Shown: one piece after another, positions 14,201 through 54,713 of the stretch
Layout: each line of letters starts with the position of its first letter
How positions within the stretch are numbered: position 1 is the stretch's first letter
Assembly (NCBI GenBank): GCA_011772205.1
Contig: WVZY01000057.1
Span: 6,190-70,189, forward strand
From: Candidatus Latescibacterota bacterium
GTDB lineage: Bacteria > Krumholzibacteriota > Krumholzibacteriia > WVZY01
Reading direction: 5' to 3'
DNA length: 64,000 bases
Made by a program: the position numbers and the translations under genes
The notes under the pieces: model-generated
The model's database searches: none
Seen by the model: the letters and a program-made list of their open reading frames with translations, nothing else
Told to the model about the DNA's origin: nothing

Positions 14201-17200
14201 GCAAGAACATCATCTTCGCCAAGGGCGGCGCGGTAAGGGGGAACCGGATCTGTGTTAATTTGCGCGGCAATCATCCCATCGGTGAAGTCCACACCGGGAG
14301 AATTGATCGGGAATTCACCTTGGATTTCGATCGAGCTGCTGGATAGGGTGATGTCAGCGCTTGAGTTTAGCTGAAGATTGAAGCTGACAGAATCCCTGAC
14401 TGCAAGGATCGCATCGTATGAGACGAACAGGTAGGTTATCCGTTTCGGACTCAGAGCCAGTCCGAGTGTATCGAGAGTGTAATAGTTGTTGTCGTGATGT
14501 CCAATTGCGAGGAGGCTGTCTGATGCAGGATCGAACAGTCCGTTCGAATCGATATCAGCAAAAGCATGAACCACCTCGATCTCACTGTTCACAACGGTTC
14601 CGGTCTGGAAAAGTTTGAGCGTCTCGACATTGAACGATGACGAATATCCGTTGTAAAAGCCTATACCAAAGTTGAGTTCATTCTTCGCGCCGGGATACAC
14701 GTATTTGTCACCTACGGAATAGGGGAATACCGTGAGCTCATTGGGCTTGGGTATCAATTGGATCGAGGGATTGATAACGGATGCATCGATAGGACCATCA
14801 TTTCCGGACGCCACCTCAATGCCTGAAGTAAGAATCTCGAACTGGATCGATGCACTGGTGGAGTACGTCGTATGGAGATCGGCCGCGGCGAAAAATCTCG
14901 TACGCTGCCCGCAAGGCATGGTGAGCGGTACGGCCATTGCTGGCATCAAATAAGTTTTGCTGCCCATATCAACAAAGTCGCCGAGGTAGCTGTCGTCACC
15001 CGAGCCTGTGTCGAATGTTCCATTGCCTCCATCGGCATACAAAGCCAGACGAGAGAAATGTTCCGAGTTCGCACTGCCCTGGTTGAAGATCTCGATGGAT
15101 TTCAACGTATCCAATTCGTAACCATTTGCCGGGATCGAGAAGTCGAGGACGAGAATATCGGTAATCTCAGTAACGATGAGACTGTCGGCAGTCGGAAAGA
15201 CTTTGATCTGATGAGCCAGCATGCCATTTATAACTAGCGGCTCCGGCGTTTCCAAGGGGAAGAACCCGACAATTGGCTTAGATGCGTCGAAATGCAGTGA
15301 TGAAGCGGATGGTATTTCTATTTTGAGCGTGTCGCCGTCACGTGCGCATGAGGAGTCGATGTCGCATGCAAAGAGTAGGTGGATGGTTTCACCGGCTGAG
15401 AGTGTCTTGGTGATGTTGCGAGCAACAAGAGATCCTCCCGAGAAAAGGAGGCTATCAGCCAGCAATTGATCCCATGCGTCTACGTTCCCATTGCCGTCGT
15501 CCGAATAGATCTTCAATCGCGCGATCTCTCCGTCCAGTTCGGCCGGTGCACCTGCGCCCGACGACATGTTCGACACGGACAACGAATCCAGCGTAAGGCT
15601 CTGCAGGGTGTTGTTATTGATGCTCGCCATTAAAATCGAAACATCCGCTGCACCAGGACGCGGCCAGCCGGCAGGGATCGGCTGGTTGGCAACTTCGATC
15701 TGTTCGATTCTTTTGATCGTATGAGTGGAATCTCCTGCTATTAGATAGTCGATGGGGCCGTCGTTTGCTGACATCACTCCAACGCCCTCGATGGGGATGG
15801 CCGGCCTGAAATGGTCTCCATCGTTTGCGTTGGTCGAGATGTCTGCAACGACGTAGAACTTGCGCGCAGCGCCCACAGGGATTTTGATCCCTGATATCTC
15901 GAAGCGGTCACCCGAGAAAACCATATTTCCAAGGGGGAGATCGACTCCAGGATCGAATACAGCATCCCCGTCATCCAGATAGAGCCGCAGCGCGCTGAAA
16001 TCTGCCGGAGAAAAATCTCCTGACACATCCATTACTGATAGTGCAGTGAGCGTATCCGCCTCATAACCGTTCTGCGGAAATGCAGCAGTGAGGAGCAGGT
16101 TGTCGGAAGCACCCGAACTAAGGGTGTCCAGGCTCGAAGGCGTCACAGAGATCTGATGCGAGACCATTCCGTCGATAACGAGGTACCCATAGGAGTTGAC
16201 GGGGTATAAAGGAGAAAAGTCCTCCAGTACATCGGTGCTATCCGTGAAAACGACATCGAAGGGAGATAGCAATATGGCATCCAGCTTGTCGCCGTCGCGG
16301 GCAAGAAAAGAGTCGATCGTCACTGCAACAAAGAGGTAGCTGGTATCCCCAGCAGGGATTGCCAATCCTCCGTTGATGGCGAAAGTAGTCCGCCCCGAAA
16401 CGAAGAAGGAAGTCGAAACGAGTGTGTCCGCTGCGGATAGCGTCCTGCTGGAATCCACATCATGATATAAAAAGAGCGAATCGAACTCGGCATCGAGTTC
16501 AAACTGCCCCCCTGGGCCGATAGTTGCATTCGTGACGATCAACGTGTCGAGGTAGCGGCTGCTTGAATATTGATTGTGGAATTCCAAAGCGAGAACCGCT
16601 TCATTGCTTGTTCCTGGATAAACGTCCTCCACGGATAGTGGAACCGCCTTGATGATGATCCTCGGGATATCGATATCGATGCTGTTCCGCCCGGCCGTTG
16701 ATATCGTATCGCTGTACGCTTTGCCATAGTCGTCCGTTCCGGCGAAGGTGATCGTGAGGTCGTATGTCGCGGGTGCAACAATTCCGGTTGGGACGGGAGA
16801 AGGGAGGAATGCGATGGTGAAATCATCCGCAGAAGGCGGTACATAAGTTGGATTCCCGAGCCTGGCCTGATATACTTTTGATCCATCCGTAAAGGAGATC
16901 GTCGAAGCGGTATCGAGCATCACGCCCACATTGGTCGAGTTGTCCATCCCGATGCGAAGCGCGAGCTGAGGATCCTCCACATTGGCTGTCGATGGGTACA
17001 GAGAATTGGGAGAATCTCTTAGAATCACGCGTTCTATCACGGTCACTTCGACGGAATCGCTGTTGTTGATAGTGTTCGGGTCTTCTTGATCAACGTTCGA
17101 GATCGAAGCGATGTTGGTGATCATGGAATCCACCGTTCCAGAATCGACGGTGGCCGTGATGATCAGCGTGGCGGTATCAGCGCCCGCGAGAACGCCCACG

Positions 17201-20200
17201 GTCCAGATCCCCGTGCCGCTAACATATGCCCCCTGGCTGGTTGTATCTGAATGGTATGTAACTCCCTGCGGAAGGAGATCCGTTACCTCGATTACTGCGG
17301 CGGTGTCCGGGCCATTGTTTATGAGCATGACGGTATAATTGAGAGAGTCGCCTTCATATGGCATCGTGACATCGGCTGATTTCACGATCTCGAGATCGGA
17401 GCTTTGAACGACGATATCGAACGACGCGATGTTGTTCGTCGTGTCTGGGTCGGCCTGATCGGCACCTAAGATTGTGGCGATATTTGTGATCGTTGAAGCA
17501 CCCGTTCCGGGATTGACAGTAGCGGTGAGCAGTAGAGTTGCGGAATCAGAGGAGGCCAGTGTGCCCACCGCCCAGACGCCCGTAGCACTCACATAGCTGC
17601 CCTGACTCGTTGTATCGGATTGGTACGTGATCCCAGCGGGCAAGAGGTCGGAAACTTCAATTCCCGTCGCAGTGTCCGGCCCCAGGCTGGCCAGCTTGAT
17701 GGTGTAAGTGAGCGTATCCCCAACACTTGGTGATGGGTTGTCGACGATCTTAGAGATTTCGAGATCCGCTCCTTGGACGGTGATGACTGTTGTGTCAATG
17801 TTGTTGATTGCATTCGTGTCAGGTTGATCGGAAGCTGTGATACCGGCAACATTGGTGATCATTGAACCGGCCGTTCCTGCATCGACGGTCCCATTGATTA
17901 CGAGTGTCGCGATTGCGGAATTCACGAGGGCGCCCACCGTCCAAAGCCCCGTACTGCTCGCGTACGTACCCTGGCTGGGGGCGTCGGCTAGATATGTCAC
18001 TCCCGCCGGTAGGAGGTCTGTTACTTCTACGCCCGTGGCATCGTCGGGTCCGTTGTTGGTTACTGTAATGGTGTAAGCGAGGGTGTCCCCTTCATTGGGT
18101 ATCGAGTCGTTCACCGCTTTTGCAATTGACAAATCCAGTGTTGCGGCATCGCGGAAGGCCACATAAAAATAAGCGTCGCCGTTTCTATTGACATCGTTGA
18201 GAGCTCCAATCTGGAAACCATCGGGCAGGAAGGTTTGAATGCCATCACTGAAAGCCGCACCGGGATCCATCGGCAGCGTATTGTCACCGGGTAGAGAAGA
18301 GGGTCGATGAACGGCCGGAGAGCCATTCGGACCACGCGTGAGGATCATATAACGGGGCTGCAGGCCAACTCCTGTAATATCTCGATTGTCCAACCCATTC
18401 CCCAGATACAGATTTTCGGCAATTCTGCCTGGTATTCTGTTCCATGCCACGCAGTGGTGGGCGATGCCTGTTTTATTGACCGTATTGTGACTGCCAATTT
18501 GGAATCCGGTTGGTTCGAAATTCTGTATCCTGTTGGTTCTTTCGTCGCTTGACTGGAAGGGTAGGCTTGCATCAAGCGGTTCGGAGGCAAACCGCTGCAT
18601 CGCATCTTCGCCATCCTCGCTCATTATGATCACATAAGCAGGGGAAAACCCGACGCTGCCGATGCTCCGGTTGTCCGTGCCGTTACCAACGTACGAATCC
18701 ACCACCATCTGCCCCGGAGCTGCGAGAAATGCGGTCCAGTAGTAGGTGACTCCTGGCGCGTTCACCTGTGCTCCCGAGCCAATCCTGAATCCATTCGGCA
18801 TAAAGGTGGTAATGAGATTGCTCAGCAACGCTGAGTTTGTCCCAAGCTCCTTGGAAACATCTCCGACCATCGTGGACGTCCTGGCCACCGCTGGTTCATC
18901 GTTGTCTCCTTTGATGATCACGAGATCTGGCCAAAACTGGAGGCCTGTTATCGGATGATTGTTGGATCCATCCCCCAGATAGCTGCCCGTGACTATCTGG
19001 AAGTCTTCATATTGAACAGAGATGTTGGCGGTGTCGAAGTTGTTGGCACTATTCGTATCTGCCTGATCAACGGCGATGAGTGTTGCCGTGTTGACAATGA
19101 TAGTCCCCAGCGTTCCCAAGTTCACGGTGGCGACAATATCCAACGTTGCGCTACCGCCGTTAGAGATAGCACCGACAATCCACCTGCCGGTAACGCTGCT
19201 GTAACCACCTTGGCTGGGAGTATCGGAGACATACGTAACTCCCGCCGGGAGCAGATCCAGGACTTCGACGCCTGTCGCATCGCCGGGGCCGTTATTTGTC
19301 AGTGTGACCGTGTAGGTGACGGTGTCCAATTCGCTGGGAACCGGATTATCGACGATCTTGGCGACCGCCAGGTCGAGGGCTGGTGCGGTGCGGAAAGCCA
19401 CCCAATAGAATTTTTCTCCATTATCATTGACGGCAACGTCCGAACCAATTTGGAACCCATCGGGCAAGAATGCCTGGATGCTGTTGCTAAGCGCGCTGTT
19501 CCCCGGAATAAGGAAACAAAAATCTCCTACGAGGGAGGCGGGACGATGAAAAGCCGCGTAATTGCTGCCGTCATGCTTGATTAGCATGTATTCGGGTTGA
19601 AAACCGACTCCGGTGATATCCCGGTCATCGGATCCATCTCCCGTGTAGTCATTGCCCGCTATTTTCCCCGGCGATACTTTCCAAGCCGCGTAATGGAAGG
19701 CGACCGACGATTGGTTGACATTTGGATGTGACCCAACCTGGAAGCCGCTGGGTTCGAATGCCTGGATCAAGTCGGGTTCTTCGGCGGCTGGAGTGAATTG
19801 TATGCTTCGATCGCCTGTCTGTGTGGGGAATCGCTGAATGGCCTGGCGTGGCGATTCACTCATTACGATTACGTAATCAGGTTGGAATCCGACGGTCGGG
19901 ATACTCCGATCGTCACTGCCATCACCAAGATAAGATCCGACTGCCAGCTCGTTCGGTGCTGCTTTGAACGCAATCCAGTAAAAGTCAATCCCCGGCTCGT
20001 TGACTTGGAAATCCGATCCAATCGTGAAGCCGTCGGGGTCCAGCGATTGAATTCTATTGCCCACTAGGCCTGTTCCGGCTCCGAGTGCTTTCGAAGTATC
20101 ACCCATCATGCTGGATGAGCGCGTGATAGTGGATTCGTTGTTATCTCCTTTGATGATAACGAGATCGGGCTTGAAGCCAATACCTGTTATAGGGGTGTTA

Positions 20201-20829
20201 TCTATGCCGGTTCCCGTATAGCTGCCCGTGTTCATCCGCATGCCGCTGCCGGCAGTGACAACCACCAGGCTGGGGCGCTGGCTTGGGAGCATCCATTCCC
20301 TGCTAAAATATTTGGACTCCGTATCGAATGACGTCGAGATGAACATCAGTCCTTCGTTGGAGTAAGTCCCCTCCACCCATTCACTCACGAGCGGTGTGAT
20401 GTCTACGGCTACTATCCCCGGTGAATTAGGAACAAAAGTCCCGTAGATAGTGGAATTGTCGTAGTCGTTGGCTGTATTGTTCCAGTTCACACCGCTTTCG
20501 GTCCAGCTGTCCGTAACGCGATAGATCGAAACGGGGCTGCCGCTGATATCCGGAGCAGATACATAGAAGAAGGCAACTGCGGTGGTGACAGTTTCACCGG
20601 CGGGAATTGGCGAGAGATCGTAACGGCAGACAACGCGGAAGCTGTCAGCGGGAGTGCTTTTATTGAATAATTCCAGGTCACTTCCGTGGTTTTCGAAAGG
20701 TGCCGCCTGCTTCAACCAGCTGTCCTGATCGAGATAGGCGGTATAAATGCCACCCTCCGCCCTCAATGGCAGCATTGTAAGAGCCGGGAAAATCAGCAGA
20801 AGCGCAATTTTTTTCGAATACATGCTCAC
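11200..20829 (-). CDS. Giant secreted surface protein (3209 aa): signal peptide, DNRLRE-like N-terminal domain, repeated about 95-aa beta modules, DUF11 repeats, long Ser/Thr-rich beta-rich region, T9SS-type C-terminal sorting domain
   Basis: Uninterrupted 9.6-kb ORF. N-terminal signal peptide. Six DUF11-like units (LTNNGPGDATGVEV..LLPAGVTY). C-terminal 85 aa match the Por_Secre_tail/FlgD-Ig-like CTD (NYPNPF...WDGRNDEGDVVNNGVYYLVL). Confidence 0.85.
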   Translation of the reverse strand: MSMYSKKIALLLIFPALTMLPLRAEGGIYTAYLDQDSWLKQAAPFENHGSDLELFNKSTPADSFRVVCRYDLSPIPAGETVTTAVAFFYVSAPDISGSPVSIYRVTDSWTESGVNWNNTANDYDNSTIYGTFVPNSPGIVAVDITPLVSEWVEGTYSNEGLMFISTSFDTESKYFSREWMLPSQRPSLVVVTAGSGMRMNTGSYTGTGIDNTPITGIGFKPDLVIIKGDNNESTITRSSSMMGDTSKALGAGTGLVGNRIQSLDPDGFTIGSDFQVNEPGIDFYWIAFKAAPNELAVGSYLGDGSDDRSIPTVGFQPDYVIVMSESPRQAIQRFPTQTGDRSIQFTPAAEEPDLIQAFEPSGFQVGSHPNVNQSSVAFHYAAWKVSPGKIAGNDYTGDGSDDRDITGVGFQPEYMLIKHDGSNYAAFHRPASLVGDFCFLIPGNSALSNSIQAFLPDGFQIGSDVAVNDNGEKFYWVAFRTAPALDLAVAKIVDNPVPSELDTVTYTVTLTNNGPGDATGVEVLDLLPAGVTYVSDTPSQGGYSSVTGRWIVGAISNGGSATLDIVATVNLGTLGTIIVNTATLIAVDQADTNSANNFDTANISVQYEDFQIVTGSYLGDGSNNHPITGLQFWPDLVIIKGDNDEPAVARTSTMVGDVSKELGTNSALLSNLITTFMPNGFRIGSGAQVNAPGVTYYWTAFLAAPGQMVVDSYVGNGTDNRSIGSVGFSPAYVIIMSEDGEDAMQRFASEPLDASLPFQSSDERTNRIQNFEPTGFQIGSHNTVNKTGIAHHCVAWNRIPGRIAENLYLGNGLDNRDITGVGLQPRYMILTRGPNGSPAVHRPSSLPGDNTLPMDPGAAFSDGIQTFLPDGFQIGALNDVNRNGDAYFYVAFRDAATLDLSIAKAVNDSIPNEGDTLAYTITVTNNGPDDATGVEVTDLLPAGVTYLADAPSQGTYASSTGLWTVGALVNSAIATLVINGTVDAGTAGSMITNVAGITASDQPDTNAINNIDTTVITVQGADLEISKIVDNPSPSVGDTLTYTIKLASLGPDTATGIEVSDLLPAGITYQSDTTSQGSYVSATGVWAVGTLASSDSATLLLTATVNPGTGASTITNIATILGADQADPDTTNNIASFDIVVQSSDLEIVKSADVTMPYEGDSLNYTVMLINNGPDTAAVIEVTDLLPQGVTYHSDTTSQGAYVSGTGIWTVGVLAGADTATLIITATVDSGTVDSMITNIASISNVDQEDPNTINNSDSVEVTVIERVILRDSPNSLYPSTANVEDPQLALRIGMDNSTNVGVMLDTASTISFTDGSKVYQARLGNPTYVPPSADDFTIAFLPSPVPTGIVAPATYDLTITFAGTDDYGKAYSDTISTAGRNSIDIDIPRIIIKAVPLSVEDVYPGTSNEAVLALEFHNQYSSSRYLDTLIVTNATIGPGGQFELDAEFDSLFLYHDVDSSRTLSAADTLVSTSFFVSGRTTFAINGGLAIPAGDTSYLFVAVTIDSFLARDGDKLDAILLSPFDVVFTDSTDVLEDFSPLYPVNSYGYLVIDGMVSHQISVTPSSLDTLSSGASDNLLLTAAFPQNGYEADTLTALSVMDVSGDFSPADFSALRLYLDDGDAVFDPGVDLPLGNMVFSGDRFEISGIKIPVGAARKFYVVADISTNANDGDHFRPAIPIEGVGVMSANDGPIDYLIAGDSTHTIKRIEQIEVANQPIPAGWPRPGAADVSILMASINNNTLQSLTLDSLSVSNMSSGAGAPAELDGEIARLKIYSDDGNGNVDAWDQLLADSLLFSGGSLVARNITKTLSAGETIHLLFACDIDSSCARDGDTLKIEIPSASSLHFDASKPIVGFFPLETPEPLVINGMLAHQIKVFPTADSLIVTEITDILVLDFSIPANGYELDTLKSIEIFNQGSANSEHFSRLALYADGGNGTFDTGSGDDSYLGDFVDMGSKTYLMPAMAVPLTMPCGQRTRFFAAADLHTTYSTSASIQFEILTSGIEVASGNDGPIDASVINPSIQLIPKPNELTVFPYSVGDKYVYPGAKNELNFGIGFYNGYSSSFNVETLKLFQTGTVVNSEIEVVHAFADIDSNGLFDPASDSLLAIGHHDNNYYTLDTLGLALSPKRITYLFVSYDAILAVRDSVSFNLQLNSSADITLSSSSIEIQGEFPINSPGVDFTDGMIAAQINTDPVPPYRAALGEDDVLALAFTIPSNGTLTDVLKSVAVQNNGTAVTGQDIIILKLWAEDGGNPLGFSSSDDRFLSILVWNGSAWQNPTGLSEAIPSSGLKCYVTFSVSNVATDESTFQARIPTNSIQVASGNDGPIDAAIVNPFEQTISTDPLLTSLHTDRSSYSMGQSIVLSMRVRNEGATPLSEISPSIISTTGSGVVNYQTGPSASSFDLPAGTDTTVIWTYVAASTGDISFCGNAFTGDSLEISEFSCSNDAQIQNRPHDIFIALNDLSPTSANRGQENVHLFELQCKHDVIDSLSATTLLDKLTLSFEDGAASPLPPNSILKSLSLINPNSGQHTFVLVDSSTNPVTLDVEPSISVLPWDDLVLDAFCQLSDSAAFTSFRIRIDQIDDIRVIDSNDSAAVTLSSQASFPWVTNDIDINAPAETLFVSAAAADTVFANVAQDNVAPLQLELLNGGDLTSASELLTRLTLSFYDTTGATIPPNAVIRKISLSTSGSVIYTTEDIPVTGNQLVCNLGSPLVLQPQSEKYIDILVDLKAFPLTDGFYLSVNDPLAIIARDFNSGQLIKVVPKSGSPGFPLLSSMMLFQTPASGVAVSHLSTLPPTLLPSMQSIPVMDIALTHSDTSSASSVELDSIAVIFSELGGTPLFPGGYFSNLRLLHNGDTLSTNSSLSSSFAIAELTLNPPLTVAPAASETLQIVLDTKSSYTPAVFEMRINKDQLVLFDSNDRSRIYEISGSFPLVTNPGALRLPSSLALCGLESKLPSNISTVQPGIPAFDLLIQNGNPEGSTDIEFRSLTVRIENIKGRILDPSQLLSGAYLSSKDSVIATGQITNSEISITIPAGLIVVTAGTTDTLFFDVDVSTQSAGENIRFVIEDSASVAVEDATTSGVMSVGTIGGTGYPLKSGTAHILGADNKEGFTNYPNPFAAGREETRITYYLDNQSYVTLELYTLWGAPVKTLLSNKLSNPGLHQDVVWDGRNDEGDVVNNGVYYLVLEIRAVGGQQSTLKRKVGVLR
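11203..11460 (-). other. Region encoding the T9SS-type C-terminal sorting domain (CTD) of the giant protein
   Basis: Last roughly 85 residues: GFTNYPNPFAAGREETRITYYL...GVYYLVLEI. Confidence 0.6.
17035..18138 (-). repeat. Four tandem DUF11 (conserved repeat domain) coding repeats inside the giant gene (aa about 898-1265)
   Basis: Divergent but clearly homologous protein repeats of roughly 120 aa: LxxxNNGPD.ATGxEVxDLLPxGxTYxSDxxSQGxY. Confidence 0.7.
19390..20223 (-). repeat. Triplet of roughly 95-aa beta-repeats (GSYxGDGSDDRxIxGxGFxPD...FxIGSxxxVNxxGxxYxxxAF), set 1. A second triplet lies at about 18145-18991, separated from set 1 by a DUF11 unit at about 19012-19380.
   Basis: Seen in the translated giant ORF, aa about 203-480 and 613-895. 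Confidence 0.55.
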
Positions 20830-35184: not shown

Positions 35185-36324
35185 TCAGTATCTGGGAATA
35201 TCAGAATCGATTTCCGCCGCCCAGGCGTTGATTCCACCTTTGAGTTTCCAGACTTTTCGGAAGCCGGCATTCCTGAGAAGATCAACAGCGGTTGCGGAGC
35301 GCACCCCCGTTCTGCAGTAGACGACAATTTCCCTCGTTGGCTCCAGCTCGTGGATGCGAGTTGCGAACTCTCCCAAGGGGATTTTCCGTCCACCGAGATT
35401 GCTGATTTGCGATTCGTACGGCTCGCGAACGTCCAGGAGAAGGATATTCTCGCCAGCCTCGAGCTTGCTTTTGAGCTCTGCTGGAGCTATTTCGGAAACA
35501 TCCACTGCGAGTTGAGTCTCGTCTCCATGCGCACCGCAAAACGCTTCGTAGTCGATGAGTTCTTTTATTGTCGGCTGCTCGCCGCAGACCGGACAATTCG
35601 GGTTCTTTGGTAGCTTGAGTTCGTTGAACCGTATCTTCAACGCATCGAACAGAAGCAGTCGCCCCTTGAGGCTTTCGCCAACGCCGAGAATGATTTTGAT
35701 CGTTTCGTTCGCCTGGATCGTACCGATGATTCCTGGGAGGACACCGAGGATTCCGCTCTCGGAGCAGCTCGGAGCAAGGCCGGGAGGGGGTGGCTCGGGA
35801 TAGAGACAACGATAGCAGGGACCGTCCTCCAAGCTGAAGACCGTTGCCTGGCCCTCGAATCGAAACACGCTGCCGTAAACGTTCGGCTTCCGCAGAAGCA
35901 CGCAGGCGTCGTTGACGAGGTAACGAGTGGGGAAATTATCCGAACCGTCCACTATGATGTCGTACCCGGAAAGGAGGTCGAGGGCGTTGCGGTTTGTCAA
36001 ATGCGTCTTGTGTGCGACGATTTCAATTTCGGGATTCAGCGCCCGAAGGCGATCCCTGCTTACATCGCATTTTGGATGGCCAATTTCTCCCGTCTCGAAC
36101 ATCACCTGGCGCTGGAGATTTGGGAGGTCCACTTCATCGGAGTCGATGAGCCCGATTCGCCCGACTCCGACGGCAGCAAGGTAAAGCCCCAGCGGTGATC
36201 CCAGACCGCCTGCGCCCACCAGAACCACTCTCGCAGCTTTCAGCTTGAGCTGGCCTTCGAGGGCCACCTCCGGCAGAATTAGGTGGCGGCTGTATCGGAG
36301 AATTTCTTCGTGACAAAGCATCAT
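35185..36324 (-). CDS. MoeZ/MoeB-type E1-like adenylyltransferase (ThiF family) with C-terminal rhodanese domain
   Basis: GAGGLGSP nucleotide loop, CxxC...CxxC zinc motif, C-terminal rhodanese with active-site CRTGVRS. Confidence 0.8.
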   Translation of the reverse strand: MMLCHEEILRYSRHLILPEVALEGQLKLKAARVVLVGAGGLGSPLGLYLAAVGVGRIGLIDSDEVDLPNLQRQVMFETGEIGHPKCDVSRDRLRALNPEIEIVAHKTHLTNRNALDLLSGYDIIVDGSDNFPTRYLVNDACVLLRKPNVYGSVFRFEGQATVFSLEDGPCYRCLYPEPPPPGLAPSCSESGILGVLPGIIGTIQANETIKIILGVGESLKGRLLLFDALKIRFNELKLPKNPNCPVCGEQPTIKELIDYEAFCGAHGDETQLAVDVSEIAPAELKSKLEAGENILLLDVREPYESQISNLGGRKIPLGEFATRIHELEPTREIVVYCRTGVRSATAVDLLRNAGFRKVWKLKGGINAWAAEIDSDIPRY

Positions 36325-36808: not shown

Positions 36809-36817
36809 GGAAGGAGG
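36809..36817 (+). promoter_or_regulatory. Shine-Dalgarno GGAAGGAGG for the DUF1573 gene
   Basis: Ends 6 nt upstream of ATG 36824. Confidence 0.5.
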
Positions 36818-36823
36818 GGCAGC

Positions 36824-37840
36824 ATGTTTGCCCGCATCATCGTCGTTTTCCTGCTTGTTTGTTCATTCTCTTCCATCGCCCTCGCACAGGATAGCGAGGG
36901 GAACCAGCCGATAGCATATATAAATACACTAGTGCAAGATCTAGGGAATGTCTATGAGCAGGATGTTTATAAGTACACGTTCGTTGTAGAGAACCGCGGC
37001 AAGGCAGAATTGATCATAGAAAATGTCAAGCCGGGGTGAGGCTGCACGGTGGCCAAATACGATAAGGTCATCCCTCCTGGTCAGAAGGGAACAATAGAGT
37101 TCGAAATCGATGGGAAAAGGGTAAGAGGCAGGTTTACAAAGGGTGCAACTATTTACACGAACGATCCCAATCATAGGAAAATGACGGTTACATTGAATGC
37201 CCATATCAAACCTTACATCTTGATAGAACCCGCTTCGAAAGTATTTCTAAAAGGATCCTATGGAGAGCAGGTCGAAAGGGAGATCATTATCTCCTCGAAC
37301 GATGAAAATCTCAGCGAGCCATTCGAAATCACCAAAGTAGAGTCAGATATGGATGACAAGATTACCTACAAAGTGATTTCTGCCGAGGAGCAAGGGAAGT
37401 TCAAACTGAAAGTGATGAAAAACCCAAAGCTCACCGTGCAAAACGCGTTTGGCAGTCTCTTCGTTTACACGAACAACGATAGAGCTCCCAGGAATGTTAT
37501 TCAGGTCCAGGTAACGACAAAGGGCGAAATGGTTGTCAGACCTTCCATCCTCAACTTTGGATTTGTCCCTGAGGCCCGTAAGCACAATGAGGAATCGCCC
37601 GTGCAAAGATCACTTACCATATCAAATTCCAAACATGAATTCGAAATCGAAGACATCACATTTTCAATCGAAGGGTACAGGGCAAAGGTGGATCCCATTG
37701 AGGATGGAAAAAGCTATAGAGTTACAGTCGATTTCTTTCCTCAAAGCGGCGGCAGGAACTATATTGGACAAATGGTAATTCATACCAGCGATCCTCGTGA
37801 ACCATTGGTAAACGTCCGTCTCATCGCCCGATTTCGATAA
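36824..37840 (+). CDS. Secreted multi-repeat DUF1573 protein whose frame contains one in-frame TGA (37037-37039) at the first Cys of the conserved CGCT motif. Candidate selenoprotein (U-G-C-T); alternatively a recent nonsense pseudogene.
   Basis: ORF 36695..37039 and ORF 37049..37840 are in the same frame, separated only by the TGA. The translated junction ELIIENVKPG-[TGA]-GCTVAKYDKVIPPGQKGTIEFEID aligns with the DUF1573 core motif (...SCGCTVPEWPK.PI.PG..G.I.V.F). Signal peptide MFARIIVVFLLVCSFSSIALA. Further DUF1573-like Ig repeats lie downstream. Confidence 0.5.
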
Positions 37841-37852
37841 ATCGGATGGTGA

Positions 37853-38938
37853 TTGGCAAATGAGTATGCGCATTTCCGGCGGCCCGGTACCTTTAAACGT
37901 CAGCCAGAGGAAAACACTGTGAGAAAGTCGCTGCTTGTTACTCTCGTCGCCTGCATGGCAGCCTTACTGATTAGCATCGCATGTGCCGAGAAATCTCCAG
38001 CAGAGGAACCGGTTGCGAATAAGTCTTCCGGCATGGAATCCTCCTCGGAGAATTCGCCTGCACAGGATTACGAATCGGAGCTGTCGTCCGAGAAGGCGTA
38101 CGAGAGGGTTATGAGGGAAATCAGAGATATCGAAAAAAGCCCGCTCGCCAAGCGAGAACCGATCAAAGCAATCGAGAAGATCGAAGGAAAGTTCCGGGCG
38201 TTTATAGAGGAATATCCGGGATCAAAAGAATCGCATGATGCGATGTTCCAGCTTGGAGTGCTTTACAACCACCTCCAAAAACCTGAGAAAGCGATACTGC
38301 ATTTGGAAAAATATCTGTCTTCAGCCTCCGATGCTGATGAGAACAAAGTAGCCTTTGCTCATTATTCTATCGCAGAGGCATACAAGAACGCCGGTAACTT
38401 CGATGCAGCGAAAAAGCATTATCGGATCGTCGTAGATCGGTATGCGAGTGTAAACACTCAGCTCTTGGGAATGGCTCGCACGAATCTCGAGGACATGGAT
38501 GTCATTCAAAGGCTTGCCATAGGGAAAGAACCGATTCCCTTTGAGGTGACGGACCTCAATGGGTCCTCCCTGTCTTTAGAGAAGTACAAGGGCAAGGTGG
38601 TTCTGCTAGATTTTTGGGCAACCTGGTGCGCACCGTGTTTGCAGGAAATGCCGAATGTAAAGCGGATCTATAAGCAGTATCATCAGCAAGGCTTTGAGAT
38701 AATAGGGATTTCGCTCGATAGCAACCGTAATGCTCTGGAGAAATACGTAAGGAGGAACGATATCAAGTGGCCGCAGCACTTCGATGGAAAAGCCTGGAAC
38801 AATGAAGTCGCAAAGAAGTACAAGGTGCGGTCAATCCCGGCAACATTCCTCCTGGATCGAAGCGGGAAGATTCGCTATAAATCCGTGAGAGGTTCTCGGC
38901 TTGCCCAGGCTGTTGAGAAGCTAGTGAAAGAAAAATAG
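37853..38938 (+). CDS. TPR-containing TlpA/ResA-like thiol-disulfide oxidoreductase (thioredoxin fold, WCAPC active site), membrane-anchored or secreted
   Basis: C-terminal VVLLDFWATWCAPCLQEMP redoxin motif. N-terminal hydrophobic anchor. Likely start is GTG 37919 (RBS AGAGGAAAA) rather than ATG 37853. Confidence 0.75.
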   Translation: MANEYAHFRRPGTFKRQPEENTVRKSLLVTLVACMAALLISIACAEKSPAEEPVANKSSGMESSSENSPAQDYESELSSEKAYERVMREIRDIEKSPLAKREPIKAIEKIEGKFRAFIEEYPGSKESHDAMFQLGVLYNHLQKPEKAILHLEKYLSSASDADENKVAFAHYSIAEAYKNAGNFDAAKKHYRIVVDRYASVNTQLLGMARTNLEDMDVIQRLAIGKEPIPFEVTDLNGSSLSLEKYKGKVVLLDFWATWCAPCLQEMPNVKRIYKQYHQQGFEIIGISLDSNRNALEKYVRRNDIKWPQHFDGKAWNNEVAKKYKVRSIPATFLLDRSGKIRYKSVRGSRLAQAVEKLVKEK

Positions 38939-41260: not shown

Positions 41261-43114
41261 CTAAATGGCCTCGGCTTTCAAACTGTGGAGGCGCGAGAGA
41301 AACTCTTTCGCATCTACAAAACCGACGACGCGAAGATCTTCTCTCTCATTTCCGTCCTGGTCGACGAAGATCACAGTGGGGACACCGCGTATCCGGAATA
41401 TTTTCCTCAGTCGCACGTTCGCTTCGGAGCCTGCTTGAGTCAAATCGGCCTTCAATCTGACGAACTCCTCCGTCGCTTTGACCACATCGTCTTGCGAAAA
41501 GGTCTTATGGTCGAGTTCTTTACAAGGGATGCACCAGTCCGCGGAGAAGTCGATTAGGACAAAGCGGCCTTCCACCTTGGCTTTGGCCAGCATGTCATCG
41601 CTGTACGGCTCCCACTTGATTCCTATTTCCTCGGCCGTTCCGAATAAGATAGTAGATGAGAAGATGATGTATAATCCCAGGATCGGGCCGATGATGCCTA
41701 TGGCACGTCGAAGCGCGCGGAAAAAAGGCGCTGTACTTTCTGATCTGACCACGAATCCAAGAACGATTCCACAGGCGATGATAACAAGCCCTAACACGAG
41801 CGCGTACAGCCAGCTTGCCATGATCGGCTTCAGGAAATACACGGCCATTGCAAGAAGTATCCCGCCGAACAACTTTCTCACCCACTCCATCCATTCGCCG
41901 GATTTTGGCAGCTTCGAGATGCTTCCGGATATCACGGCGAGGACAACGAAAGGCAAACCGAGGCCGACGGCAAGAGTAAAGAACAGGGAAAATCCGAGAG
42001 CCGGGTTGCCGCTCTCGCCGACGAATGTGAGAAGACCCAGGACGAATGGACCGATGCAGGGTGCTGCGACGATTCCAACGGTAAGGCCCATGAAAAAAGC
42101 TCCCATCGCGCCCTGCTTCGATGTTCCGGCAACATTGCTTAATTTTGCAGGAATACGGATCTCATAAAAGCCGAACATCGACAGGGCCAATCCGACGAGC
42201 ACGAGGGCGACGAAAGCGAGCACATATGGGTTTTGGAGCGCTGAGCCGAACAGACTTCCCGTCAACGATGCGATCAGCCCCAACGAGGAATACATGATAG
42301 CCATGCCGAGCAGATACAGTATTGCGAGAAAAACCGTTCTCGAGCTCTTTCCTCTGCTCTGTCCTCCGAAGTAGCTCACAGTTATTGGAATCATCGGATA
42401 CACGCAGGGAGTGAGATTGAGCGCCATACCGGCGATGAAAACGGTGAGAAAAGCGAGTAGCAAACCTTTCGTTGCGATCAAGCGGCTCAGCGTGCCCTCG
42501 CGTATGCCTGCTCCATCGTCGGATGTGGTAGGGGGGGATGTGAGGCCGAAATTTATTTTGGAAAATATTTCCGTGTGGATCGCGTCGATCGCCTCCGTTG
42601 GGGGAGATACCCTGAACGGAATCACAAGCGGTTCATTCACCGGTGCAATGCACTTCTCGTTGTCGCATGCTTGGTAGGTGAGTGTGGCCACAACCGTGGT
42701 ATCCCCCAGAGGGAAATCTTTTGCCACCCCAATAAGAACGCCTACAAACACTTCACCTTCGTATAGGGCCAGCGGTTTGTCCGAAAACGAAAGGCGCTTT
42801 TCGGTCGCATTCGGATAGATGATCTTCCGGACGTCTATTCCGGGAGCGGTTTCAAGAGATATCGATGTGGGAATCAGGTATTCGTCGTTCACCTCATGGG
42901 CGTTGATGTGCCAGTGACCGCCGATGCGGACTGCCACGGCGACAGGTATGGTACCTCCTTGCGAAACGCTGCTAAAACCGGTGTAGGCGCGCAGGGTAAC
43001 CGGGTCCTCGATATAATCGAGGTTGAATTCGCTCGATCTTGCGATCGACACAAGTGCAAGCATAGCTACGAAGACCCCGAGCACCCAATAGATGAATCGC
43101 ATTCGTGACAGCAT
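41261..43114 (-). CDS. dsbD: Thiol:disulfide interchange protein DsbD (alpha domain, cytochrome c biogenesis TM core, C-terminal thioredoxin)
   Basis: N-terminal Cys pair (CDNEKC), TM-core cysteines (CVYPMIP, APCIGPF), C-terminal WCIPC thioredoxin motif. Confidence 0.85.
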   Translation of the reverse strand: MLSRMRFIYWVLGVFVAMLALVSIARSSEFNLDYIEDPVTLRAYTGFSSVSQGGTIPVAVAVRIGGHWHINAHEVNDEYLIPTSISLETAPGIDVRKIIYPNATEKRLSFSDKPLALYEGEVFVGVLIGVAKDFPLGDTTVVATLTYQACDNEKCIAPVNEPLVIPFRVSPPTEAIDAIHTEIFSKINFGLTSPPTTSDDGAGIREGTLSRLIATKGLLLAFLTVFIAGMALNLTPCVYPMIPITVSYFGGQSRGKSSRTVFLAILYLLGMAIMYSSLGLIASLTGSLFGSALQNPYVLAFVALVLVGLALSMFGFYEIRIPAKLSNVAGTSKQGAMGAFFMGLTVGIVAAPCIGPFVLGLLTFVGESGNPALGFSLFFTLAVGLGLPFVVLAVISGSISKLPKSGEWMEWVRKLFGGILLAMAVYFLKPIMASWLYALVLGLVIIACGIVLGFVVRSESTAPFFRALRRAIGIIGPILGLYIIFSSTILFGTAEEIGIKWEPYSDDMLAKAKVEGRFVLIDFSADWCIPCKELDHKTFSQDDVVKATEEFVRLKADLTQAGSEANVRLRKIFRIRGVPTVIFVDQDGNEREDLRVVGFVDAKEFLSRLHSLKAEAI

Positions 43115-50474: not shown

Positions 50475-50775
50475 ATGGACATGGTGAGAATGTATTCAGG
50501 AATTTGGAATGAGGGCGATAGATCTGAAGACTCAACGGCTACCAGGGAGTCTCAAATCGCGATGAAGAATTTTGCTATGTTCCTAATCCTTGCTTTGTTT
50601 TGCGCGTTTGTGTTTTTTGCATCGCTTTTCGGGTTCGCACACGCGAGTGGTGGCTTGGATTCGAATGAGGCAATCCTGGACTGCCACGAAGACTACGACG
50701 CTCTGCTATAGTTGCCATACACTATCTGAGTCACATGTTGTGTTCTTCGAATCCAACATTTCGGACTTCTTATGA
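50475..50775 (+). pseudogene. Remnant of a multihaem c-type cytochrome gene (signal peptide plus first CxxCH, then frameshift)
   Basis: ORF 50475..50711 is a signal peptide plus LDCHEDYDALL (paralogous to LDCHEEYDRSL of the downstream decahaem). CYSCH continues in the +1 frame (ORF 50590..50775). Confidence 0.45.
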
Positions 50776-50862
50776 CGACTTGTCTTGAATAAACCTTGAC
50801 AGTGTGGAGCTGGATGCTAAAATGCTTGAGGGTGCCAACGACCCAGCGTACGGGAGGTGATA

Positions 50863-51801
50863 ATGCGATTCACTAACCAGCTTTTCACAATGTCTTTCTT
50901 CGTTTCCCTTCTCCTTGTTATCCTCCTCACTTTTCCAGCATCGATGGTGGCGCAAGAGGCCGTTGTGGATGATGAAACGTGCCTGGACTGCCATGAGGAA
51001 TACGACCGATCGCTCGCTTCGAGTTCCCATAGGCTGGTGGCGCAAACAGACACCCGAACTGTTCAAATCCGCTGTGTTAGTTGTCACCGGGGAGCAGAAC
51101 TCCACGTTGAAGATCCTTCCACTGAGAACATTGGGAATCCCGCGAGTCTTATCGGATTTGATGTGATCGAGATTTGTTCGCAATGTCACTCGGCCCACTC
51201 CGAGCTCGACAACTACGGTTTCGATGCACATACGGTGGAGCAGTTGAACTGCTCGGAGTGCCACAAGGTTCATACTTTTGGCACGGTTCCCCTTCTCGAT
51301 GAGAGGGCGGAGTTCTGTTTCGGGTGTCATCAGGAAAAGAGAGCCAACTTCCTCAAAAACTCTAACCATCCGGTACTCCAACAGAACGTCACGTGCTTGA
51401 GCTGCCATCAATTTACAAAACGGCAGGATCAAAATCTCGCCTATGAATTGTCGAGCCATTGCCGCGATTGTCATCCTGAGCAGGGGGGACCGTTTCTCTT
51501 CGAGCACGAGGCAGTCAATGCTTATTCGGTCGAGGGGAGCGGGTGCATCGAATGCCATGATCCTCATGGAAGCGAAAATAACCGACTGATGAGGCAGCCC
51601 GGGAATCAGCTTTGTCGACAATGTCATTTCCCTGCGGGTCACACGGCGGCACATGGCGGGATCTGGGCTGCTTACGACTGTCAGATTTGCCACACGGAAA
51701 CACACGGCTCCTTCGTAAGTAACCTGTATCTCGATCCGAATTTGCCCGCCAAACTGGGCGGCAGCTGTTACAACCCTGGCTGTCATAGCCTAAATAGGTA
51801 G
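50863..51801 (+). CDS. Periplasmic decahaem c-type cytochrome (MtrA/PioA/MtoA-like)
   Basis: Ten CxxCH motifs in about 310 aa. Signal peptide. ATG 50863 with RBS GGGAGG. Confidence 0.8.
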   Translation: MRFTNQLFTMSFFVSLLLVILLTFPASMVAQEAVVDDETCLDCHEEYDRSLASSSHRLVAQTDTRTVQIRCVSCHRGAELHVEDPSTENIGNPASLIGFDVIEICSQCHSAHSELDNYGFDAHTVEQLNCSECHKVHTFGTVPLLDERAEFCFGCHQEKRANFLKNSNHPVLQQNVTCLSCHQFTKRQDQNLAYELSSHCRDCHPEQGGPFLFEHEAVNAYSVEGSGCIECHDPHGSENNRLMRQPGNQLCRQCHFPAGHTAAHGGIWAAYDCQICHTETHGSFVSNLYLDPNLPAKLGGSCYNPGCHSLNR

Positions 51802-51812
51802 CGAGGTTCACA

Positions 51813-53375
51813 ATGAGATGCCATAGGCGTGCAATGCTGGGTCTCTTGTTTGGAATATTCGTATGCTCGGCGAATGGGGCGGTATCGAAAGAAGGGACCG
51901 GCAGGTTCGAGTTGGGCTACGTTTATACGGACGAGGAAGGCAACCTCGCAGTCAACCAGGAGACCCACAACCTGTATGACGGATTGACAATCTCGCTCCG
52001 AGATGCCCGTTATTCGCTGGATAACGGGATTAATATAGGGGCGAATTTGAGGTACATCTCCCTGGACAATAGGAACATCGATTTCTCCGCCTCCAAAGCT
52101 CAGCTTTTTTCTCTCTCGTTCCATCACGATCAATATCGGCGAATTTACGAATCCGGAGGAAGAGGGTCCACCGATCGGAAATCAACAGGAGGGCAAGTGT
52201 CCGTTTCTCCTGTGAAGTATGTCACACTCTTCGGAGGGTATAGCTGGACAGATAAGGGAGGGACCAATTTGTTCTTGTTCCAACCTATCTCCGATCCGGT
52301 GGTTTTTACCAGCGACTATACCCATCGATTTTTCAACATCGGAGGGCAAGGATTCTTCAAGGGCAGGAGTGTTCGATTGGAGTATCGACAATCTGATTTT
52401 GATGATGAGGCAAAAGGTCACGGCGATCGCAAAGGACAAATGTTCAGAACCAGCGCTTCGACTCCGTTTCCCAGATACGAGCGTGTGGTACTGGCAGGAG
52501 GGTATGATTACCGACTTGATGAAATGGAGGGAAGTAGCGTTGAGCTGGAAACGAACCAGGCATGGGGCGCTACGAAAGCTAGGCTGCCCGGACAGATTAC
52601 CGTCGATTACCGGTTTGTTTTCGCACGCACCGACCATAAAGGCAACGGGATCGAAACGGATAACTTTCTGAACACGGTCTCGGTGGGAAGACGTTGGAAC
52701 CGACATGGAGGGTTTCGCGTTGGATACGAAAACCGTATCGTCGACGATCTCATCGATCGGAGCGAGTCCAATGGATTTTTGTTCAGTGGTTGGATCAATT
52801 ACCTCGACAAGCTTTTTGTAAGAACTTCGACGGCGACGCGGGATAAGAATATCGTCACGGGATCGACGCTGATTGGGGATGAAGATTTCACCCGCTATCG
52901 GGTCGCAGCCAGATATGTAGATGAGCGGTTTGGGGAGTTATCCGCACAGGTGCGAGCGCGTGTCAAAGAAAACGATGATATCGGGAGTGAAGCAGAATAC
53001 ACATCCTTCTCAACCGGCTTCAAGCTCTCCAGGCAAAAATACGGTCGGCTATCCATTTTTTACACATACTATGTTGGAGAATACGAGAGCCGTTCCGCGG
53101 ACTTCGAGTTGTCCGACCATGTGGTCAGGGGAAAGATCACGCCTGTGAAGTATCGGAAAGTAAGCGTCACCGCAGGAGGAACGTATTACCGGAGCCGAAG
53201 GGACCTAGATGTTGAAAAATCCAGTTTGAATTTGGGCATTTCCTATGAACTCCCGGAAGATTTTCACGTGGAGGCGAAGTATTCGGTGTTCAACTACGAC
53301 GACTTCCAGGCGATCGATTTGTTCTATACGGGAAATGTTGTGGAGGTGAGTATCGCAAGAGATTTTTCCATATAA
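51813..53375 (+). CDS. Outer-membrane beta-barrel porin partner of the decahaem cytochrome (MtrB/PioB-like by position)
   Basis: Signal peptide. About 500 aa of alternating amphipathic beta-strands rich in Y/R/D/G. Sits between two multihaem cytochrome genes. No detectable primary-sequence signature, so the call is contextual. Confidence 0.5.
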   Translation: MRCHRRAMLGLLFGIFVCSANGAVSKEGTGRFELGYVYTDEEGNLAVNQETHNLYDGLTISLRDARYSLDNGINIGANLRYISLDNRNIDFSASKAQLFSLSFHHDQYRRIYESGGRGSTDRKSTGGQVSVSPVKYVTLFGGYSWTDKGGTNLFLFQPISDPVVFTSDYTHRFFNIGGQGFFKGRSVRLEYRQSDFDDEAKGHGDRKGQMFRTSASTPFPRYERVVLAGGYDYRLDEMEGSSVELETNQAWGATKARLPGQITVDYRFVFARTDHKGNGIETDNFLNTVSVGRRWNRHGGFRVGYENRIVDDLIDRSESNGFLFSGWINYLDKLFVRTSTATRDKNIVTGSTLIGDEDFTRYRVAARYVDERFGELSAQVRARVKENDDIGSEAEYTSFSTGFKLSRQKYGRLSIFYTYYVGEYESRSADFELSDHVVRGKITPVKYRKVSVTAGGTYYRSRRDLDVEKSSLNLGISYELPEDFHVEAKYSVFNYDDFQAIDLFYTGNVVEVSIARDFSI

Positions 53376-53594
53376 AGATCGGTATGGGGCGCGGATTACC
53401 ACGAATATGTGGCAACGGGAATTGAGAAAGGCTCACTAAGAGCATAATGCGGGGATAGTAAACCAATACGTTTGACCCCCGGTTGGCAAACAAGAAGAGA
53501 AAACGGTAGCAGAACTTGGCCTTAGAGCAACGCCAAAGCCTCTTGCCATCCTTGCGTGTGAGGCGAATTGTTGCAAAGAAGGAGGTGCGTTTCT

Positions 53595-54713
53595 ATGAAA
53601 ACTGCAGCCCGAGTATTTTTGCTGGGGCTGTTGGCACCGCTAGTCGCTATGGGCTGCGAGCGAAAAGTGACCAATGAGGTGACCGAGATCGTTTCCCCGG
53701 ATGTATCTTTTTATGTGGGGAGCGACGCCTGCCAGGCATGCCATCCCAGCTTGCATGCGAGCTTCATGAAAACCGGGCATCCCTTCAAGTTGAACGACGC
53801 AGACGACGTTCAGGATCCCAACTACTATCCCTTCTCCACGGTTCAGAATCCGCCGGATCTGGCTTGGAGCGAAATCGATCTCGTCATCGGTGGATTCTGG
53901 TGGAAGGCACGATATATCAGGGCAGATGGGAGGATATATACGGGGCCAAACCGGCAGTATAACCTGCGGCCTGATAATCTCGCGCCTCCGGAATTCGTCA
54001 AGTACGAAACGGATACCCCAGGGACAAAAGACTACGATTGCGGTCGCTGCCATACAACCGGCTACAAGGCGCAGGGGAACCAGGATGGGAAACCCGGCCT
54101 GATCGGCACCTGGGCGTCAAACGGGATCCAGTGTGAAGCATGCCATGGTCCCGGAGGAGTTCATGCGAACTCTCCCTATGACGTCCGCATGGTTATTGAC
54201 AGGTCAAACGAGCTGTGCGGCAAGTGCCATGTTCGCGGCGCGGTTAACACGATCCCAGCGCAAGGCGGCTTTATTCGTCATCACGAGCAGTGGAACGAGA
54301 TGTTCACGACGAAGCATAGCGGGATCCAATGCGTCACTTGCCACGATCCGCATATAGGGCTACACCCGAGTAATCCAGATCGGGATATGGCGATCAGGCT
54401 CCAGTGCGAAAACTGCCACATGAAAGAGACGAAGAGTTTCGAGAATTCCTCGATCCTTCATTACGATGCGGGCATAACCTGCGAGGACTGCCACATGCCG
54501 AAAGCGAGCAAATCGGCCGTAGCGATCGGAACGTACGAAGCGGATGTCGCCACACATCTGTGGCGGATCAATACGGACGCGAATGCCGAAATGTTCACTC
54601 CCGACGGGAAGTTCGCAAACGGGTACCTAACACTCAATTTTGCCTGCAGTAGGTGTCATCCAGCAAAGACATTGGGTGAGCTTTCCTCCGACGCAGCGAA
54701 CGTGCACGAGTAG
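53595..54713 (+). CDS. Octahaem c-type cytochrome lipoprotein (outer-surface partner, MtrC/OmcA-analogue by context)
   Basis: Eight CxxCH motifs. Lipoprotein signal LAPLVAMGC. ATG 53595 with RBS GGAGGTG (ORF 53568 extension unlikely). Confidence 0.8.
   Translation: MKTAARVFLLGLLAPLVAMGCERKVTNEVTEIVSPDVSFYVGSDACQACHPSLHASFMKTGHPFKLNDADDVQDPNYYPFSTVQNPPDLAWSEIDLVIGGFWWKARYIRADGRIYTGPNRQYNLRPDNLAPPEFVKYETDTPGTKDYDCGRCHTTGYKAQGNQDGKPGLIGTWASNGIQCEACHGPGGVHANSPYDVRMVIDRSNELCGKCHVRGAVNTIPAQGGFIRHHEQWNEMFTTKHSGIQCVTCHDPHIGLHPSNPDRDMAIRLQCENCHMKETKSFENSSILHYDAGITCEDCHMPKASKSAVAIGTYEADVATHLWRINTDANAEMFTPDGKFANGYLTLNFACSRCHPAKTLGELSSDAANVHE

Follow-up and report, generated by a model that had tools for sequence, protein, structure and literature searches.

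The window, by which we mean the whole stretch of 64,000 nucleotides that was analysed, contains a single reading frame that extends from an ATG at position 36824 to a stop codon at 37838-37840, the sole interruption being the TGA at 37037-37039. Translation across the junction reads ...ELIIENVKPG-*-GCTVAKYDKVIPPGQKGTIEFEID, which agrees with the first-pass annotation of this DNA in describing two adjacent open reading frames that share one frame and are split by this TGA alone. Public gene calls, including the tables for loci L001, L073 and L074 and the entries of database homologues, report fragments of ~62-71 and ~219-265 residues. Run ERR2564001 has been assembled separately in Logan, and the same TGA is present in that assembly, which was possibly built on the same reads. 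Across the window, TGA terminates 14 of 34 genes, and TAG and TAA terminate ten each, which confirms that TGA is an ordinary stop elsewhere in this DNA and excludes a reassigned genetic code in which UGA is a sense codon throughout the genome. A systematic scan of the window for other genes with an in-frame TGA returned only adjacent genes that happen to share a frame or frames that are non-coding. The features of the locus are collected in Table 1.

Table 1. Coordinates of genes and sequence features at the locus, numbered from the first letter of the window.
Feature	Position	Strand	Description and basis
Shine-Dalgarno-like GGAGG	36813..36817	+	6 nt before ATG 36824; read from sequence
Predicted selenoprotein CDS, OS_HP2 / DUF1573 member	36824..37840	+	338 codons plus stop; UGA 37037-37039 is residue 72; translation, Pfam, NCBIfam, homologues
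Putative Sec-type signal peptide	36824..36886	+	MFARIIVVFLLVCSFSSIALA, cleavage after A-L-A, before QD; inspection of translation
DUF1573 / HYDIN-VesB-CFA65-like Ig domain with U-G-C motif	36929..37198	+	residues 36-125; PF07610, PF22544, AF2
Predicted UGA Sec codon	37037..37039	+	first position of U-G-C motif (37037-37045); codon comparison, 71 genomes
SECIS-like hairpin CCCUCCU-GGUC-AGAAGGG	37072..37089	+	within CDS, codons I-P-P-G-Q-K-G; begins 32 nt after UGA
Hairpin parts	5' arm 37072-37078; GGUC loop 37079-37082; 3' arm 37083-37089	+	mismatch C37076·A37085
Two further Ig-like beta-sandwich domains	37211..37837	+	residues ~130-233 and ~235-338; without CGC; AF2, Foldseek
TPR and TlpA/ResA-like thioredoxin-fold protein, WCAPC	37919..38938	+	Pfam AhpC-TSA, Thioredoxin_8, Redoxin, TPR; NCBIfam ResA/TlpA-like
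MoeZ/MoeB-like ThiF adenylyltransferase with C-terminal rhodanese	35185..36324	-	divergently transcribed; Pfam ThiF, Rhodanese; NCBIfam MoeB/MoeZ; synteny in 19 loci
DsbD-type membrane thiol:disulfide electron transporter	41261..43114	-	DsbD_TM and Thioredoxin_7 (L001 gene table); synteny in 16 loci, L073 and L074

Profile searches assigned the translated product to a described family. With U replaced by C, residues 36-125 matched Pfam PF07610 (DUF1573) at 81.9 bits (E 3.6e-23), for which the gathering score is 26.1, and the HYDIN/VesB/CFA65-like Ig family PF22544 matched too (E 2.5e-15). The best NCBIfam match, again with U replaced by C, was NF041425, named 'OS_HP2 family (seleno)protein' (E 5.7e-28), at 97.1 bits, which lies 2.9 below the curated cutoff of 100 bits. 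Orthologues scored from 86.1 to 135.2 bits with this model, and four of ten passed its cutoff, among them a member from Thermodesulfobacteriota at 135.2, one on a Latescibacterota chromosome at 106.9 and a Cys form at 105.1. As judged from these scores, the predicted window protein is within the OS_HP2 family continuum, and it fits the definition in the literature, namely a PF07610 domain in which Sec takes the place of the first Cys in CGC.

OS_HP2 was first reported as a new selenoprotein family in 2007, from the metagenome of Olavius algarvensis symbionts (PMC1976440), and the 2008 Global Ocean Sampling analysis listed 'OS_HP2, pfam07610, UxC' with two Sec sequences and 354 Cys homologues (PMC2398784); reviews from 2022 and 2026 also cover the family. 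The window gene resembles the OS_HP2 described by Zhang & Gladyshev (2007; PMC1976440) in its PF07610 domain, in the placement of Sec at the first Cys of C-G-C to give U-G-C and in the stem-loop downstream of the UGA, with Cys homologues being commoner in the family at large. It differs in scoring below the NF041425 cutoff and in its setting, as deltaproteobacterial symbionts of worms and ocean metagenomes were the sources of the original members, whereas the window gene occupies a syntenic block of the Latescibacterota/Krumholzibacteriia type. A literature search for selenocysteine in Latescibacteria returned nothing relevant. The first-pass annotation had presented the gene as a candidate for a new selenoprotein family, which does not hold in view of the 2007 publication and the existing NCBIfam model; positions 36824-37840 encode a member of this known selenoprotein family that had gone unannotated.

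The structure of the product was modelled with AF2 using 20 homologues, which resulted in a mean pLDDT of 88.3, with values below 50 for residues 1-24 that correspond to a disordered signal peptide. The model comprises three beta-sandwich domains at residues ~30-129, 130-233 and 235-338, and in the first of these U72 occupies the tight turn that separates strands 63-70 and 74-79. Hydrophobic N-termini were observed in all full-length homologues, and the putative signal peptide suggests that the product is probably exported. Pfam detects one DUF1573 domain, and the remainder consists of two Ig-like domains that are visible only in the structure model and do not contain CGC, which replaces the earlier description of this region as further DUF1573-like repeats. 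A Foldseek search of the PDB returned only generic tandem proteins of the Ig/ASH type, such as ciliary central-apparatus proteins, an RTX adhesin and cadherins, and a PDB sequence search gave only matches at the level of chance (E of at least 0.43), so the fold supplies no catalytic clue. Some Sec forms from Blastocatellia (L062, L067, L071 and related loci) have ~190 residues after the Sec position rather than ~266, probably reflecting one fewer Ig-like domain.

This architecture bears on whether the locus contains one gene or two. The public gene calls would correspond to a 71-residue DUF1573 fragment followed by an independent protein of 219-263 residues that initiates at GTG 37049 or at a later ATG. 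Such a split, however, cuts through a single beta-sandwich domain that is delimited by Pfam (residues 36-125) and by the AF2 model, leaves a downstream piece without a signal peptide of its own and is at odds with the Cys-type orthologues, which are single continuous proteins. We consider the probability that two separate genes lie here to be negligible, and we treat positions 36824-37840 as one gene.

We compared the codon homologous to the in-frame TGA across 71 GTDB species-representative genomes, which revealed TGA in 63 and TGC in eight. The 25 residues upstream are conserved in frame in all 71, and the TGA forms are present in Latescibacterota, Krumholzibacteriia, Blastocatellia and other Acidobacteriota, KSB1, Calditrichota and Thermodesulfobacteriota, with protein identity to the window dropping to ~22%. 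The closest relatives that were fetched, L073 and L074 (~60% identity), have TGA as well. One of the two DNA search patterns included PPGQ, which partly biases the locus set. The patterns for this DNA search were derived from nine closer homologues. A protein search returned 70 homologues, and the best 43 of these comprised 34 gene calls that are broken at the Sec codon and nine full-length proteins of 341-355 residues. The 34 broken calls begin just after the TGA position and are ~257-265 residues in length, with the exception of three that are shorter. C-G-C occupies the junction in all ten full-length homologues that were aligned, which were eight of those nine and two more distant ones. 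These comparisons bear out the original proposal that the stop coincides with the first Cys in the C-G-C motif of DUF1573: homologues have Cys in this column, and other genomes contain TGA at the same site.

The same comparisons weigh against the alternative that the gene is a pseudogene, in which a nonsense mutation within this lineage converted the TGC of a Cys-type DUF1573 gene to TGA. That conversion takes a single step. However, the TGA is shared by 63 species from several phyla, including the closest relatives, and the sequence is conserved on both sides, a pattern that a lineage-specific nonsense mutation cannot explain. Furthermore, the 266 codons that follow the TGA are open and conserved, with 58-61% identity to the nearest relatives. 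The distribution of TGA and TGC is what a selenoprotein family with Sec and Cys forms typically shows, and the in-frame TGA almost certainly specifies selenocysteine.

We also investigated the hairpin with a GGUC loop that had been proposed as a SECIS-like element downstream of the UGA. For this analysis, the 72 nt from the TGA on were aligned without gaps for all 64 TGA forms, which are the 63 genomes and the window. RNAalifold alone returned only a shifted helix of three pairs from this 64-sequence alignment, and therefore the named hairpin was examined by explicit pair counts and by an exhaustive helix scan. The scan, which considered helices of at least 4 bp that are paired in at least 80% of sequences, identified one real helix, formed by columns 36-42 with columns 47-53, which correspond to the two arms of the named hairpin (37072-37078 with 37083-37089). 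This hairpin is the only conserved helix within 81 nt after the UGA. Over the 64 TGA forms, 93.1% of the hairpin cells are paired, in comparison to at most 67% in controls with the 3' arm shifted by 1-3 nt. A separate hairpin, GGCUGC-ACG-GUGGCC at 37040-37054, was suggested by folding the single sequence and was rejected, as Blastocatellia and other members do not conserve it. The single-sequence fold of 37037-37110 was no better than shuffles (z = 0.31), which neither supports nor refutes a SECIS, and Rfam gave no match at gathering scores across the whole window or at E values up to 10 around the site.

The helix shows compensatory changes. The pair between columns 39 and 50 is U-A in 41 sequences, G-C in eight and G-U in 14, and is thus switched in 22, and the pair between columns 42 and 47 is U-A in 50 sequences and C-G in two. 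None of 500 shuffles reached the covariation score. The switch at 39:50 combines a synonymous change of a Pro codon (CCU to CCG) with a change on the opposite arm of GAG to GCG or GUG, which alters the amino acid, a combination for which there is hardly an explanation other than RNA pairing. Of the 64 TGA forms, 54, including the window, have a GGUC loop and ten have GGGC. Mean folding energy of the hairpin was -10.9 kcal/mol for the Sec forms and -5.5 kcal/mol for the eight Cys forms, and the window hairpin gave -7.0 kcal/mol, a value that refers to a 24-nt segment and varies with the segment folded. At third codon positions, identity among the Sec forms reaches 0.73 within the hairpin in comparison to 0.45 beyond it, whereas the corresponding values for the Cys forms are 0.51 and 0.56. 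The proposed SECIS-like element is thus conserved in all 64 TGA forms and is not found in the Cys forms, and together with the codon counts (TGA in 63 of 71 genomes) the compensatory changes in this TGA-specific hairpin uphold the reading of UGA as a Sec codon at a redox-type Cys position.

The protein sequence encoded by the hairpin also differs between the two forms. Sec forms retain the motif (V/I)PPGQ(E/V/A)G, which spans 37067-37090 in the window and the homologous codons elsewhere, with PPGR in two members. In the aligned Cys forms, the hairpin has decayed and the segment mostly reads PPGG, APGK, MPGR or similar. The division between Sec and Cys forms with respect to PPGQ was also observed in the protein-search set, which is independent of the search pattern that included PPGQ. 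Because the putative SECIS lies within the coding sequence, it would impose the PPGQ(E/V/A)G motif on the Sec-form protein. Taken together, the comparative evidence strongly supports both the selenocysteine reading and the assignment of the hairpin as a SECIS, and we regard the two as very probably correct.

We next consider how the hairpin relates to the published consensus for bacterial SECIS elements. In the bSECISearch criteria, for which we follow the summary in PMC13188914 (Fig. 2), the loop has 3-9 nt and sits on an upper stem of 4-16 bp, one or both of its first two positions are G (usually G[G|U]), 16-37 nt separate it from the UGA, and the folding energy is -7.5 kcal/mol or lower. 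The hairpin has a 4-nt loop and a stem of seven positions, of which the window forms six pairs and one C·A mismatch, and the GGUC loop of the window provides the G. As in the consensus, the stem-loop lies in the coding sequence downstream of the UGA, and the hairpin of OS_HP2 forms is present only where the codon is UGA. It departs from the consensus in spacing and, for the window, in stem mismatch and energy, which misses the -7.5 kcal/mol limit. Although the hairpin does begin 32 nt after the UGA, as first described, its loop lies not at the outer limit of the reported spacing but just beyond it, 39 nt from the UGA (37040-37078). This distance is identical in all 64 TGA forms, for which the helix scan detected no alternative conserved helix closer to the UGA, and it is therefore a feature of the family that does not point to decay. 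We take the GGUC loop of the window to resemble the SECIS loop of E. coli fdhF, with a 4-nt loop that starts with GG followed by U and a 7-bp stem.

The window hairpin is the weakest of the 64, which could be viewed as decay in a pseudogene. Its mismatch arises from a G-to-A change at 37085 that converts the codon at 37085-37087 from GAG to AAG (Glu to Lys), and A is found at this position only in the window among the 64 TGA forms; the closest relatives have a perfect stem with energies of -11.7 and -11.9 kcal/mol. However, four other members (L014, L039, L042 and L058) are also mismatched at this position of the stem, and the mismatch thus appears to be tolerated. Furthermore, the TGA-form-specific hairpin has been maintained with compensatory changes. 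A pseudogene would also accord with the lack of selA, selB, selD and tRNA-Sec within the 64-kb window; an ARAGORN search of the window and of 60 related loci detected no tRNA, and the flanks of those 60 loci contain no tRNA-Sec. With the same TGA found across several phyla, we judge the pseudogene alternative, which the first-pass annotation had raised, to be highly improbable.

A different possibility is that a near-cognate tRNA reads the UGA as Cys or Trp, with the Sec machinery perhaps lost and the gene functioning at a low level of read-through. This reading would accommodate a window hairpin whose energy and 39-nt spacing are beyond the limits of the published SECIS model. The spacing and the GGUC or GGGC loop are, however, common to all 64 TGA forms, and lineages that abandoned Sec have switched to TGC and lost the hairpin, which suggests that UGA is not tolerated for long without Sec decoding. 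We consider such read-through to be very unlikely, and selenocysteine remains our preferred reading of the codon. In the mechanism that we propose, this one gene would encode an OS_HP2 / DUF1573 selenoprotein, the UGA would be decoded co-translationally as selenocysteine and, based on the comparative data, the hairpin within the coding sequence would act as a bacterial SECIS that recruits SelB with Sec-tRNASec. The predicted product would have a signal peptide and three Ig-like beta-sandwich domains, with Sec-Gly-Cys in the tight turn of the first.

We also examined the genes surrounding the locus. The downstream gene was confirmed to encode a TlpA-like thioredoxin with a WCAPC motif, as first annotated, based on its Pfam matches (AhpC-TSA, Thioredoxin_8 and Redoxin) and on the motif in its translation. 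Its best NCBIfam matches are ResA and TlpA, all of which score under the equivalog cutoffs, and it contains CxxC in a thioredoxin fold. Three starts are possible for this gene, at TTG 37853, GTG 37919 and ATG 37955, and translation from the GTG begins MRKSLLVTLVACMAALLISIAC..., which includes a possible lipoprotein-type signal. The gene order at the locus is HD-domain, MoeZ-like ThiF/rhodanese (-), DUF1573, TPR-TlpA, GT4 (-), FAA hydrolase (-) and DsbD (-), and the order from the HD-domain gene to DsbD is conserved in loci of the Latescibacterota/Krumholzibacteriia type, whether they encode the Sec or the Cys form. In 30 related loci, again of both forms, TPR-TlpA is the gene that immediately follows DUF1573. 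No thioredoxin-like neighbour was seen in loci from Blastocatellia, KSB1, Calditrichota and others, and the TlpA-like thioredoxin is thus a lineage-conserved neighbour rather than a family-wide one. In two Acidobacteriota loci, L034 (6857-7927, minus strand) and L067 (7114-8145, minus strand), a gene with an N-terminal CNLDCxHC motif, which is radical-SAM-like (CxxxCxxC), closely follows the DUF1573 gene and is encoded on the other strand.

The U-G-C motif most likely cycles between a selenol/thiol and a selenenylsulfide, or else binds a soft metal, as its predicted role. Sec adjoins Cys or lies one residue from it in ResA-like WAxxUGC selenoproteins (NCBIfam NF041054) and in the GCUG motif of thioredoxin reductase, and this similar proximity of Sec to Cys makes a selenenylsulfide couple plausible. 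Those proteins have a thioredoxin or flavoenzyme fold, in contrast to the Ig-like beta-sandwich of the DUF1573 protein. Based on synteny, a redox partnership is plausible in this lineage, in which the U-G-C selenenylsulfide would be reduced by the adjacent exported TlpA-like thioredoxin with electrons supplied by DsbD.

Other genes in the window were also observed. A giant ORF of 3209 residues (11200-20829, minus strand) contains DUF11 repeats, DUF7483 and CBM96 and is probably surface or adhesin-like. Two ORFs of 338 and 520 residues (50770-51786, minus strand, and 51813-53375, plus strand) showed no Pfam match at E values up to 1e-4, and the other strand contains a 314-residue ORF that overlaps the first of these. 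The window also encodes a multihaem c-type cytochrome (53568-54713, plus strand) and a pyruvate:ferredoxin oxidoreductase (58350-61967, plus strand), which are consistent with an anaerobic or microaerophilic lifestyle.

A broader interpretation, which we offer as speculation and consider unlikely as a whole, is that the OS_HP2 hairpin represents a distinct long-spacer class of SECIS, with 39 nt fixed across at least five phyla, and that the U-G-C protein of Latescibacterota and Krumholzibacteriia together with TPR-TlpA and DsbD would constitute a dedicated extracytoplasmic selenium redox relay. Because OS_HP2 is already present in selenoprotein catalogues, the value of the present analysis is mainly corrective, in that the gene deserves annotation as one selenoprotein instead of split calls. 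The analysis also adds modestly to what has been described for the family. The Sec form is widespread in Latescibacterota, Krumholzibacteriia and Acidobacteriota, as judged by the 63 TGA and eight TGC forms among the species sampled, and the OS_HP2 SECIS is clearly defined by covariation and by its fixed 39-nt spacing. Since this spacing is just outside the model used for prediction, SECIS-based tools could miss the OS_HP2 element. Finally, the PPGQ(E/V/A)G motif of the Sec forms would represent a clear case in which an RNA signal constrains protein sequence.
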